From Escherichia coli (GTDB lineage Bacteria; Pseudomonadota; Gammaproteobacteria; Enterobacterales; Enterobacteriaceae): a DNA stretch of 64,000 bases. The stretch is from the NCBI RefSeq assembly GCF_003019035.1, contig NZ_CP027448.1, one strand, 5' to 3'. Below, one piece after another: positions 7,221 through 29,080 of this stretch. The notes under the pieces are model-generated. The model was not told the origin of the DNA. It made no database searches and worked only from the letters and a program-made list of their open reading frames with translations. A program made the translations under genes and the position numbers. Numbering within the stretch: position 1 is the stretch's first letter; every line of letters begins with the position of its first letter.

Positions 7221-7340
7221 CCTAAGCCCTGTTCCCTCTAAACTGGCGTTTCCTGCGCTCAACTGATATCAAAAGAGGGTTAGCAGGCCCCGACATCAAA
7301 GCACTGATGTTATTTAATGTCGGGAGTAATATTTTATTTA
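7221..7340. repeat. Repeat R copy 1 (about 120 bp, hairpin-containing, unknown nature)
   Basis: About 90% identical to 28965-29080; contains cccgacatcaaagcactgatgttatttaatgtcggg with inverted-repeat arms. Confidence 0.5.
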
Positions 7341-7343
7341 ATA

Positions 7344-8843
7344 TCAGTTAGTATCTCCGTTACCACTTCCCTGACACGTTATATCTTCAGATTTCCCCGG
7401 AAACAGGAGGTGACGAACAACAGCCTCATCCACACATAAATTAGTGCCAGCTAGCGCCAGCGTATGCCCGTCACCGTTAATAGTCAGTAACGGAGCTGAA
7501 AATTTATCTGCCATTTTACGGGCATTTATCCAGGGAGTTGTCGGATCATATTTGTGTGCCACAAACAGTAAACCGGATGGTAAAACAGTATTCTTCAGGC
7601 GTGTCTGTTGCAGATCACGATGAATTGGCCATAATTCACAAAATTCAGGTAAATCGGACTGTTCCCTCTCAAAATTAACGGCCGGAAATGCGTCAGCAAG
7701 GGCTTTTTTTCGCGATTTTCGTTGTTCCTGTGATAATTGTTCATCACCCTGATCAACACATAATATTACGCCCAGAGCATCACTGACTTTTTCCGATGCT
7801 ATGGAAAAATTAAGTGCAGTTTCAATTTCATTGCTGACAATACCCTGAGAGAACTGACGTACGGCCGTTGCAAGTGTTGGCCATGATGAGCGCCATAACA
7901 GAAGCTCTGTCGTTAATGATATGAGATCATCTGAAGATATACTTTCCCCCCTGCTGTCTGTTAAAGGAGAATTATGTAATTTTAATAAAAGCTGATGGAA
8001 CTGATGTATTGCCTGATTCCTGTCTGACGAAAGTGGACAACTTTTTGTCCTGGCACACCATGCAGCAAAACGATCAAACGTTTCCTGATAACTGTGGGCC
8101 TGCCTGAGTTGCCATGAAAAATTATCATTTAAATCATCAATATCAACGACACCGTCAAGAACTATAGATCTGATGCTGGAGGGAAAACGTTCAGCATATA
8201 AGGCTGCAATCTGTGTACCGTATGAATATGCTACAGCTGTCAGTTGTTTATATCCCAGTGCTTGTCTGATGCGTTCAATATCATATACAGCCTCATGAGA
8301 TCCAATATGGCGAATGACTTCAGCTCCTGTATTATGGATACAGGCATTAATTTTCTGTAAAATTAGTTGCTTTTCGCTTACATTCACCGATCTTTCTTGA
8401 TTGGGTTGCTGGCAGTTTATGGCAGGAAAGGACTGACCGACACCTCGTGGATCAAAACCGATAATGTCCCATGATTCCCGAAGATTTGTGACCGGCCAGT
8501 CAAAATTGATATAAGGATTAATTCCGGGTAATCCAGGCCCACCACTTATTATAATAATACTCCCTTTACGTTTACTTTTTGCCGGCAGATTTGTCATCGC
8601 CAGTCTGACAACTGGTATATTTTCATCTGAAATATCCCCACCTGTGTCGGTATATTTTAACGGTACAGATAGATATCCGCATAACAACTCAGGTGAAGGG
8701 CTTTCTGTACCAAACCAGTCACTGTATGGACTGGTCATACAGGATTGCCACTCGATCTGTCTGGCAGACACTGTTCCGCAAAGAAAAACAGAAAAGATAA
8801 ATAATACTAAGGTCCTTCTTAAAGGCTTCATTATCACACGCAT
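7344..8843 (-). CDS. Secreted alpha/beta hydrolase, peptidase S33 (TAP-like) family
   Basis: N-terminal signal peptide; GGPGLPG motif; nucleophile elbow AYSYG (G-x-S-x-G type); C-terminal GDGHT candidate catalytic His. Confidence 0.6.
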   Translation of the reverse strand: MRVIMKPLRRTLVLFIFSVFLCGTVSARQIEWQSCMTSPYSDWFGTESPSPELLCGYLSVPLKYTDTGGDISDENIPVVRLAMTNLPAKSKRKGSIIIISGGPGLPGINPYINFDWPVTNLRESWDIIGFDPRGVGQSFPAINCQQPNQERSVNVSEKQLILQKINACIHNTGAEVIRHIGSHEAVYDIERIRQALGYKQLTAVAYSYGTQIAALYAERFPSSIRSIVLDGVVDIDDLNDNFSWQLRQAHSYQETFDRFAAWCARTKSCPLSSDRNQAIHQFHQLLLKLHNSPLTDSRGESISSDDLISLTTELLLWRSSWPTLATAVRQFSQGIVSNEIETALNFSIASEKVSDALGVILCVDQGDEQLSQEQRKSRKKALADAFPAVNFEREQSDLPEFCELWPIHRDLQQTRLKNTVLPSGLLFVAHKYDPTTPWINARKMADKFSAPLLTINGDGHTLALAGTNLCVDEAVVRHLLFPGKSEDITCQGSGNGDTN

Positions 8844-8935
8844 TGCATCTCCTGCATTGGTAAATTATTACCCTGACCAACAGACATAATCCCCGGCGGC
8901 ATAATTCTCACCGGAGATGGTGACAGTTAATGTTG

Positions 8936-9883
8936 TTAAAACGTGTACTTCAGACCGGCCGTCGTAATGAAGTTGTAATTTTCAATTCCAGCCCCGTTAT
9001 TATTATGCTCCGAAGTATTATCACTACGGTCGTAAAGAGATGTATCCCCTTTTTTATTTGTGAGACGACTCCATACACCTTCGATGTACACCTTTGCCTC
9101 TGGGGTGATATAGTAACCGGCATTAACTGCAACAGAATAGTAATTCTGGTTTTTTACTTTGCTTCGGAATGTGGTCTGTCTTACATAATGCTCATCATTA
9201 TCAGATCCCCTGACCCATCCGCTGTATTTAAATGCACCACCAAACTCAAAATTATCGTAACGGTAGTTTCCTGTCAGACCGACATAAGGAATTTTAAAAT
9301 GTTGTTTATAACCAATCACTTTTATTTTATCAGGTAACGCTCCCGTTTCATTCCGGAAACCACCATTCTCACTGTAAATATAAGTTCCTCCTGTAACATT
9401 AAAACTGTAACGGCTTTCCTGATAACCTGCCATAATAGCAAGGCGATAATCAGATTCTTTAAAAAACCAGCCTTTAACGTTCAAATCAAATTCGTTGGCA
9501 TAATTAAGCCGTGTATCAGGATGCCTGCTTTCATCTGTCCATGTTCCGGGAATCCTGGAATCCATCCAGTCCTGATCAACCATATTTCCCCCCCGACTAT
9601 TGAGTGTGCTCCAGCCAGCTGCACCAACAGATAACCATGGATTTAGCCCCCAGTTAACGGCGCCTTTAAGAATGGCTGCGTTACTGTATTTCCAGTCCAG
9701 CTGGCTGACTTTACGTCCACCTTCTTCAGGCTCATAAACCCGTTCTTTTGTTTTGCCACTCAGTGTACCTAAATTAATCTCTGTATTTATACTCTCCGGG
9801 CTAAATAAATCAGAGGTAGAAGCAGCCTGAGAGCAAAATACAACAGGTGCTACAAGCATAATTGCCAGAAGCTTAGTTTGCAT
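8936..9883 (-). CDS. Omptin-family outer membrane protease (OmpT/OmpP-like)
   Basis: 315-aa ORF with signal peptide; extended blocks ISLGTLSGKTKERVY, GGRKVSQLDWK, GGNMVDQDWMDS, NGAGIENYNFITTAGLKYTF match omptins essentially end to end (recalled OmpT sequence). Confidence 0.85.
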   Translation of the reverse strand: MQTKLLAIMLVAPVVFCSQAASTSDLFSPESINTEINLGTLSGKTKERVYEPEEGGRKVSQLDWKYSNAAILKGAVNWGLNPWLSVGAAGWSTLNSRGGNMVDQDWMDSRIPGTWTDESRHPDTRLNYANEFDLNVKGWFFKESDYRLAIMAGYQESRYSFNVTGGTYIYSENGGFRNETGALPDKIKVIGYKQHFKIPYVGLTGNYRYDNFEFGGAFKYSGWVRGSDNDEHYVRQTTFRSKVKNQNYYSVAVNAGYYITPEAKVYIEGVWSRLTNKKGDTSLYDRSDNTSEHNNNGAGIENYNFITTAGLKYTF

Positions 9884-10059
9884 AACTATGACTCCATTCT
9901 GTCACTTTTATATAAAAATTCTTTTGATGGGTGTTTGTAAGTCAATTATCAGATGTTGATTCGTTTACTTTCTGTTTAACATAGCGATTCATTTTTGTGA
10001 GATATATCAATATATCTAAATGATATACGGTAATAGTGTGTACATCATATCAAGTAGGC

Positions 10060-27347: not shown

Positions 27348-27354
27348 ACATAAA

Positions 27355-27570
27355 CTGTAGTCAGATAAGAGAGACTCTTTACTGACTACAGTTTATATTA
27401 ACAGGTGCAGTGAGTGATGTGCTCACTGTAGTTTATATTCAGTTTCCTGCTGTACTGTCTGTGGCTGAGCAGCCATCTGCCTGTTCCTTACATAAAACAT
27501 GGCTTACTCACTACAGCTTATCTACCTGCTCCAGCTTATGTTATGTCTGTTCTGCTTACCACTGCTTATA
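27355..27570. repeat. Iteron-like repeats downstream of repA
   Basis: Recurrent actacagtttatatt / actgtagtttatatt / actacagcttatct / accactgcttatata units. Confidence 0.5.
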
Positions 27571-27589
27571 TAAGGAAGCGTGTATGCCG

Positions 27590-28330
27590 TCACTTCAGGG
27601 GAGGCAGTGTACGCAGGATCTCTGCAGCATCCCGTCCGTCACCTGTGAAAGGCACTGCCAGCGTGGCAGCCATATCCAGTGCAAACACTCTGGTATAAAC
27701 CTCCATAGAACGTGGATCCCTGTGACCAGCCAGTGCCTGAATGACTTTCCGGGGCTGGCGGTGATAAAGCATGTGCATGATATAGCTGTGCCGGAAGGTA
27801 TGTGGTGTGACCGGAATCGAAAAGTGTACCCCGTCAGCTTCGGCCCGTCTGACAGCCTGCTTCAGCCAGTTGCGCATGGTTTCGTCGGTCACGGCCCATA
27901 ATGGTTCACGACGACGGGGCCGGGTGGTGATCATCCAGCTTTCCATCTGCCTGACATAGCTTATATCTGTCAGCGGAACCAGGCGGACCTCATCTTTTGG
28001 CGGGCGTCCGCGTCGCGCACGCACTTTTTCGGACAGGATCCGCACAAATGGTCTTACACCATCCAGATCAAATGATTCCGGTGTCAGCATCCGGGCTTCG
28101 CCAATACGCATTCCGGTATTCCAGAGGGTGGCGAACAGCATATGGTGACGCTGATCCGGCATATAGAAAAGAAGGGCACTCACTTCCGGGGCCAGCAGGT
28201 AGGCCGGTGTGGCCCCCGTGGAAGTGGCCATTCTTCTCAGGGAGAGCGCTGTTGCAAAATCCACCCCCGGCGCAATGGGTAACAGGGAGACGCGTTCTGG
28301 TGAATTCTGCAGGGGAATGACATTGTTCAT
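27590..28330 (-). CDS. Tyrosine site-specific recombinase (phage integrase family)
   Basis: 246 aa; C-terminal [10 protein letters not shown]...GHRD...EVYTRV (H-x-x-R and catalytic Tyr context). Confidence 0.8.
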
Positions 28331-28964
28331 GAGTTATTTTTCACGTAGCACACGCACTGTTTATGGATACAGGTATTCTGACCTGAACGCCCGGATCCTT
28401 CCACGACAATAAATCGCAGAGCGCGGATCCTTTTGTTTGCTTATCACGCATTATTGCGGGTAAAACCAAATACGTAAAGGCGCGTTTTGCCGCAGGGATC
28501 CTGTCTTAAGCCAGTCATGGTGCGGGCTGAGGACTGGTTTGCCGTTTTTGGGAGAAATGGGGTAATGCCAGGATGAATAGGATCGGAGAACACAGAGAAA
28601 GGGAACTGAAAGGGAGAAGATGTACCACGTGAATTCCGGCCCGGGGCGTCACCGTCCCCCTGACAGTTTGACTTTACGCAGGAAGGTTGCAGACTCAGCA
28701 TAGTGACTGATTTATATGCAATCCTGCCCATGATTAATATAAACATAATAATGATTATGCAGAAAATCACTTTCGATAAGATGTATATAATTACGACGTT
28801 TCATATAATATTTTTCGCATAAAATAAGAAAATATATGTAACTAAAATGTATCATATCTTAGATATGAGATTTATTATATTAGTGCCTTATTCATTGCCT
28901 GATATCCTCTTTTCATAACTGCATGTACATGAACCTGACTCATGATTGCCACTCTCTTATTTTT

Positions 28965-29080
28965 CCTAAGTCCTGCCTCCTCTGAACTGGCGTTTCCTGC
29001 ACTCAACTGATATCAAGAGAGGGTTAGCAGGCCCCAATATCAAAGCACTGATGTTATTTAATGTCGGGATTATATTTTAT
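28965..29080. repeat. Repeat R copy 2
   Basis: About 90% identical to 7221-7340. Confidence 0.5.

Follow-up and report, generated by a model that had tools for sequence, protein, structure and literature searches.

The repeat R, which occurs twice in a 64,000-nucleotide stretch of an Escherichia coli plasmid (contig NZ_CP027448.1 of assembly GCF_003019035.1, here called the window), is an already known sequence of the F plasmid that was duplicated by ordinary plasmid mosaicism. It very probably corresponds to the 127 bp downstream of the F-type hydrolase gene, doubled via two partial and diverged copies of the plasmid backbone, and its double occurrence reflects the coexistence in the window of two F backbone copies truncated in different ways. 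The original prediction, made from the nucleotide sequence, had described two copies about 90% identical to each other at 7221-7340 and 28965-29080, lying at module junctions and lacking homology in their flanks. When both places were compared by blastn with 500 bp of flank on each side, the pair was confirmed (89.8% identity over 127 columns, with 12 mismatches, one gap and E 5.8e-45), although each predicted end was a few bases short of the fuller extent, which is 7215-7341 for the first copy (R1) and 28959-29084 for the second (R2). No further homology was detected between these flanks, all other alignments having E > 1. The copies are direct repeats separated by 21.7 kb, with the hlyCABD operon and the RepFIB replicon between them, and the longest perfect stretch that they have in common is 31 bp. 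R is non-coding; the short open reading frames (ORFs) that start inside it on the minus strand (MSAGNAS...) run into the non-homologous flanks, and a conserved gene in R was rejected for this reason.

In the F plasmid (NC_002483 / NZ_CP099589) the same sequence is the intergenic stretch that separates the RepFIB int gene from the hydrolase stop codon, and it is found there as a single copy at F 2631-2757 (F positions are numbered from the start of repB). The order of this region in F is repB (RepFIB), int (a tyrosine recombinase), a kinase pseudogene, R, an alpha/beta hydrolase gene, ompP, autotransporter 1 and autotransporter 2. By direct comparison, F 1-2757 (repB-int-R) corresponds to window 26370-29084 with 94.2% identity, F 2631-5469 (R-hydrolase-ompP) to window 7215-10048 with 95.8%, and F 9773-13173 to window 29083-32472 with 90.5%. 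The first two blocks overlap at exactly F 2631-2757, which is R, and nowhere else. Each copy runs on into a long stretch collinear with F, the overlap being confined to R, as expected of partial duplicates of one backbone. R1 is 97% and R2 91% identical to the F stretch. Whereas both flanks are contiguous with the single copy in F, each copy in the window has only one F-type flank, R2 sharing the int neighbour and R1 the hydrolase stop codon. The placement at module junctions was correct, and the absence of flank homology holds for R1 against R2 but misses the long F-homologous block on one side of each copy. Membership of R in a longer duplicated fragment, the outcome that the original prediction had named as telling against it, is essentially what was found, in the form of kilobase blocks of one contiguous F region. 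The window resembles other IncF plasmids in its segmental mosaicism, with lineage-specific kilobase blocks, abrupt junctions, microhomology at the deletion end and nearby insertion sequence (IS) elements, and nothing in it is unusual in comparison with them; the sole curiosity is that two breakpoints lie 127 bp apart, which yields a short direct repeat.

At the first locus, R1 (7215-7341) is joined on its right side to the gene for a 499-amino-acid alpha/beta hydrolase (7344-8843, minus strand), of which it is the 3' flank; this gene was identified from its ORF, from its Abhydrolase_1 and TAP-like C-terminal domains in Pfam and from the RefSeq annotation of the F homologue. An ompP-type omptin gene follows at 8936-9883 on the minus strand (ORF, Pfam and comparison with F), and the F homology of this block stops at window 10048. 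On its left side, R1 is joined without homology at F position 2631 to an orphan IncFII fragment (junction region 7016-7214); read at the base level, the junction is ...GCTTAC|ATTTATCC, with an abrupt start of the F-type sequence. The usual place of the orphan fragment, about 184 bp long (7016-7199), is downstream of repA in IncFII replicons, with at least 5000 matching records. The outer left flank is a pair of genes for a GNAT toxin and a TacA-type antitoxin (6196-6953, minus strand; ORFs and Pfam), which we take to be GmvAT-like, and the segment 6193-7037 is 94% identical to Shigella flexneri pINV. This left junction is inherited in about 11 E. coli plasmids. The first copy (7215-10048) would have received its left cut at F 2631 through an illegitimate junction with the IncFII fragment and the GmvAT-like toxin-antitoxin module. 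The orphan fragment itself, sitting between the toxin-antitoxin pair and R1, is about 89% identical to the stretch downstream of the IncFII repA of E. coli, Klebsiella and Salmonella, has an internal deletion relative to IncFII and contains a terminator-like hairpin at 7081-7095 on the minus strand.

At the second locus, R2 (28959-29084) is joined on its left side to the RepFIB module (26370-28330), composed of repB (26370-27347, plus strand) and the tyrosine recombinase gene int (27590-28330, minus strand), and the distance of 628-629 bp from int to R is the same as in F. To the right of R2, F 2758-9772 is missing, that is, the hydrolase gene, ompP and most of autotransporter 1, and the right junction (29079-29085) is the end-point of this deletion of about 7 kb. 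It reads TTTTAT|TCAAAGCTG at the base level, and F has TTAA on both sides; the same junction recurs in seven PLSDB plasmids. What follows is the C-terminal remnant of autotransporter 1 (29085-29445, plus strand), a pseudogene without N-terminus according to the annotation of plasmid pLR-24_1 and to the comparison with F, and then an intact autotransporter 2 (30070-35007). Because autotransporter 1 is an intact coding sequence in F and an N-terminally truncated pseudogene beside R2, the R2 locus is a deletion derivative and not an empty site; for the same reason, an insertion of hydrolase-ompP into an empty site of the pLR-24_1 type was rejected. In two further plasmids (CP116045 and CP041436), the left-hand single-nucleotide polymorphisms of the R2 lineage are found with the hydrolase gene still attached. 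The second copy (26370-35007 and beyond) would thus have arisen by a microhomology-mediated deletion of about 7 kb, starting 2-6 bp before the hydrolase stop codon, which would have taken out the hydrolase gene, ompP and most of autotransporter 1.

According to this scheme, R would be what lies between two independent breakpoints, both fragments having retained it. Any hydrolase module arriving with a 3' flank longer than a few bases would overlap with the deleted RepFIB-side locus, and the length of the repeat would be the length of that flank. With a deletion that begins so close to the hydrolase stop codon, only a few bases ahead of it, overlap with a separately inherited hydrolase module is to be expected, and no special mechanism is required.

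The ancestry of the two copies is consistent with this. The allele found in the alpha-hemolysin plasmid C311 p1 matches R1 at 98.5% identity, and that of pLR-24_1 and pSTEC299_1 matches R2 at 100%. Each copy has diverged from F to about the same degree as the flank attached to it, and there is no sign of concerted evolution. Three segments of the window, 1-10609, 13144-28652 and 33007-37435, are collinear with C311 p1 at 96-99.8% identity, the window having one IS more. C311 p1 contains R1 with the same left junction and no R2, and its sequence is unrelated after F position 2325. In bins of 150 bp, the window is C311-like (97-100%) through repB and then, from about 28577 through R2, 99-100% identical to pLR-24_1. 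As judged from these comparisons, R1 and R2 are different alleles acquired independently, one with the C311-p1-like backbone and the other from plasmids of the pLR-24_1 type. The absence of R2 from C311 p1, together with the switch to pLR-24_1-like sequence at about 28577, indicates that R2 came by allelic replacement beside RepFIB when R1 was already present; it could have been imported by homologous exchange next to RepFIB from a plasmid of the pLR-24_1 type.

The hairpins that gave R its first description are found mainly in R1. The main one, stem II (7289-7324, minus strand, which is the hydrolase-sense strand), was recovered both by folding and by the inverted-repeat search, with arms at 7289-7300 and 7313-7324 (CCCGACAUUAAA ... 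UUUGAUGUCGGG) of 12 bp that are 92% complementary and form 12-13 pairs on the minus strand; it starts 19 nt past the hydrolase TGA (7344-7346) in the sense direction. A weaker stem-loop, stem I (7228-7287, CCCUGUUCCCUCU ... AGAGGGUUAGCAGG), is present in the minimum free energy and centroid folds of both strands. The outer right arm of a nested inverted repeat, TTTAATATCAGTT at 7337-7349, overlaps the hydrolase TGA and pairs with AACTGATATCAAA at 7261-7273; this arm is absent from R2 and was removed by the 12-bp deletion in CP116045 and CP041436. A further inverted repeat of R1 pairs 7303-7317 with 7334-7348. The motif GAYATYAAA occurs four times, two direct and two inverted, within 85 bp (7261-7349), forming nested inverted repeats across the hydrolase stop codon, and 12 times in the whole 64 kb, where about 4.3 are expected; three of the four motifs are mutated or deleted in R2. 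The array may be bound by a protein or may amount to RNA or DNA structure alone. Folding, which had been suggested as a check, upheld the hairpin for R1, with its 12-bp arms and a fold better than that of shuffled sequences (z -2.9 on the plus and -2.65 on the minus strand), but not for R2, which folds no better than shuffles (z +0.87 and -1.16, respectively) because two substitutions weaken stem II.

Stem II is probably a terminator or 3'-stabilising hairpin at the 3' end of the hydrolase transcript, a reading that follows from its position and fold and from hairpins found at the same place in homologous hydrolase genes. Like an intrinsic terminator, it is a G+C-closed, G+C-rich stem-loop on the sense strand, shortly past a stop codon. 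In a chromosomal hydrolase-omptin homologue of 86% identity, a hairpin with additional G-C pairs is retained at this place, and the hairpins that occupy it in hydrolase homologues of 80% identity are unrelated, one being a canonical terminator (a stem followed by UUUUAUUG). R2 would be a relic hairpin with nothing left to terminate, and its weakened stem and lost motifs are compatible with this, although they are no proof of it. The substitutions of stem II in F and in R2 cost one mismatch and one wobble on either strand and do not discriminate the functional strand.

Several points weigh against this account. Unlike intrinsic terminators, stem II is not followed by a U-tract directly 3' (CCUGCUAACCCUCUUUUG; sense-strand tail GCCUGCUAACCCUCUUUUG), and the consensus terminator scan made no call at it, nor did the promoter and terminator scans around both copies make any call in R itself. 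No compensatory changes were found in an alignment of 11 R alleles; covariation support is missing because the available alleles are too similar. The order of events is taken from present-day plasmids, and the window's plasmid is in neither of the collections searched, its best matches there being 99.7% identical on the R1 side and 98.8% on the R2 side. Finally, two independent breakpoints only 127 bp apart may hint at a special site, and other rearrangements cluster in the same place.

This last point can be developed into a tentative possibility that complements the backbone-overlap reading and does not displace it, namely that the hairpin-rich and AT-rich right half of R is a rearrangement hot spot, with deletions and IS insertions drawn there by the nested inverted repeats that the four GAYATYAAA motifs build; the position of both junctions would then be accounted for. 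The events recorded are the R1 left junction (F 2631), an IS5 insertion (F 2699), an ISCro1 insertion with a target duplication of F 2705-2713, an IS3 insertion (F 2728-2731), a second and different IS3-family insertion (F 2739), and the 12-bp and 7-kb deletions, which begin at the same nucleotide, at about F 2754-2757. Among 171 plasmids, no breakpoint was found inside the adjacent 281-bp non-coding left flank; for the five events that do not define R, against none in the flank, our own calculation gives (127/408)^5, or about 0.003, under uniformity. Nevertheless, the counts are small and partly ascertained via searches centred on R, and selection is possible, as nowhere else does a gap separate the replicon module from an intact gene, and the left flank could be under constraint. 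IS5 targets YTAR, and its position here is accounted for by a TTAG target, while the three IS families follow different target rules. The cluster as a whole, F 2699-2766, is window 7283-7350 (loci L004, L005, L006, L009, L012 and L018), and the 12-bp deletion takes with it one arm of the inverted repeat and the hydrolase stop codon.

A more doubtful extension is that the nested inverted repeats of the four motifs and stem II, at the hydrolase gene's 3' end, act as a structure-dependent fragile site and IS target that seeds module exchange beside RepFIB. If so, the two copies of R would be products of one recurrent process and not two unrelated accidents. The clustering of IS elements and deletions in this 127-bp spacer is, in any case, a small example of a possible hot spot at the 3' hairpin of a gene.

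The original prediction had also offered a small RNA or terminator module as an identity for R, and of these two options the terminator kept its place on account of the hairpin 19 nt past the stop codon and of those in the homologues, while the small RNA gained no support from Rfam. A small regulatory RNA encoded by R, stand-alone or released from the 3' untranslated region of the hydrolase mRNA, is very unlikely. R1 does have two stable stem-loops (z about -2.7 to -2.9) and does occupy the position of a 3' untranslated region; however, a search of both strands of 7100-7450 against Rfam 15 yielded nothing at E up to 10, and one of the whole window at gathering thresholds yielded nothing at R and only isrN elsewhere. 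Moreover, there is no promoter-like site in or beside R1, conservation in R does not exceed that of its flanks, R2 folds no better than shuffled sequence, and the phylogenetic range is very narrow.

It is highly improbable that the two copies were generated by a cointegrate, formed when an F-type plasmid (repB-int-R-hydrolase-ompP-hly) and another plasmid bearing R underwent one homologous crossover within R. The geometry would suit such an event, given that the copies are direct, share the 31-bp perfect stretch and flank a RepFIB-containing segment of 21.7 kb, and that recombination between them would restore the F-type order int-R-hydrolase. Against it, C311 p1 shows the same architecture, including R1 and its left junction, yet has no R2; neither copy is chimeric, each being near-identical over its full length to the allele of one lineage; and the R2 allele block has boundaries of its own, at about 28577 and 33007. 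The crossover was rejected on the first two of these grounds. The absence of the expected parent, in which R would have the IncFII fragment on one side and the autotransporter remnant on the other, also speaks against it.

Hardly any weight can be given to R as a recombination site of the RepFIB-linked tyrosine recombinase Int, with hydrolase-ompP moved site-specifically and one site per locus. The int gene is indeed 628 bp from R in F and at the R2 locus, the copies are direct and keep one flank each, and R contains a core-like inverted repeat, ACATCA-AAGCAC-TGATGT. These inverted arms with their 6-bp spacer lie inside stem II, and such a motif is part of any hairpin. R is not co-inherited with int: the int end of the query finds matches in at least 5000 plasmids, yet only about 156-177 carry R (156 extend through it). 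In most, the F homology ends instead at F 2246-2342. Furthermore, F has a single R and no second site bounding the 7-kb segment, the deletion junction, which truncates a gene, falls not in the hairpin but in an AT-rich run with microhomology, and at its left junction R1 meets an unrelated IncFII fragment; the two junctions appear illegitimate.

The distribution of R bears on whether it is mobile by itself. R was carried by 88 of the 5,426 complete E. coli genomes and by 177 of the 72,556 plasmids searched, all of Escherichia or Shigella, with at most one intact copy per replicon (of the records with two places, two were examined and both were single copies split by an IS). The search for further copies had been recommended from the start, and what it returned was confined to the F-type int-hydrolase context, in which all copies examined were found; in most records starting at the RepFIB repB, R lies about 2.6 kb in, directly after repB-int. 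The 13 chromosomal places, which include those of the laboratory strains XL1-Blue, Origami2 and KLY, are taken to be integrated F. Conserved cores of R had no exact match in 100,044 species-representative (GTDB) genomes (two cores) or in the IMG/VR viral contigs (one core). No inverted repeat in R pairs the left terminus (7215) with the right one, each having at least one internal arm, and the flanks (...GCTTAC|R1|ATATCAG... and ...CTCTCTT|R2|AGCTGAT...) contain no direct repeats that could represent a target-site duplication. In its similar length, non-coding nature and capacity to form hairpins, R is like ERIC/IRU (about 127 bp long), REP/BIME, RSA and miniature inverted-repeat transposable elements (MITEs); unlike them, it is not dispersed, not chromosomal and not multi-copy, and is limited to F-type plasmids of Escherichia and Shigella. 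Hence the suggestion of a MITE, or of the end sequence of some unrecognised mobile element, inserted at two places, to which R's size of about 127 bp, hairpin potential and intergenic position had given some appeal by recalling ERIC- or MITE-type repeats, is effectively refuted by the copy number, the single F-type context, the lack of matches in species-representative genomes and viral contigs, the lack of terminal inverted repeats and flanking direct repeats, and the kilobases of F homology into which each copy runs on one side.

The overlap of two truncated backbone copies has little consequence beyond correct annotation, and it illustrates that a short hairpin repeat at module junctions can be mere overlap of two truncated copies of one plasmid backbone. 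As an overlap of this kind, R is therefore not to be catalogued as a new MITE or small RNA. The two direct copies, with their 31-bp perfect stretch, bracket 21.7 kb containing the alpha-hemolysin operon and RepFIB and could support a rare deletion or excision of this segment.

The alpha-hemolysin operon hlyCABD between R1 and R2 is complete (13294-20536, minus strand) and 99.8% identical to that of C311 p1; an IS insertion at about 10609-13144, not present in C311 p1, parts it from ompP in the window. Autotransporter sequence is also found at the left end of the window, where 2-366 on the plus strand is a C-terminal segment that shares 85% identity with the last part of F autotransporter 1 and runs off the window; in C311 p1 it is the end of a 2.5-kb autotransporter gene. 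There are therefore three paralogous autotransporter tails in the window. Within a 1645-amino-acid autotransporter, 31169-32459 consists of three to four in-frame tandem units of 372 bp, in a number that differs from those of F and pLR-24_1. Another in-frame tandem array, of six 108-bp units up to 99% identical to one another (54797-55636), lies in a 1176-amino-acid ORF (52892-56422, minus strand).

The full-length match to isrN (RF01396), at 58583-58710 on the minus strand, scored 86.2 bits against a gathering score of 44. isrN is an Hfq-binding small RNA described from a Salmonella island; the plasmid here is evidently an alpha-hemolysin plasmid of E. coli, and C311 p1 has the 981 bp around the match at 99% identity and in inverted orientation. 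To the left of the R1 locus, 1921-3776 on the plus strand encodes a PAPS-reductase/DUF3440 protein (408 amino acids) and an overlapping 241-amino-acid ORF without Pfam match, annotated in C311 p1 as having a ParB N-terminal domain; this gene pair may be a plasmid-borne defence or maintenance module, and it is followed by an IS110-family transposase gene at 4837-5901. Finally, an ORF of 737 amino acids (39867-42080, plus strand) lies in a block that matches, at 99.7% identity, the region of C311 p1 with an annotated katG (catalase-peroxidase HPI) and then cytochrome b562; by coordinate offset the ORF coincides with the katG of C311 p1, and it resembles the katP of Shiga toxin-producing E. coli plasmids.

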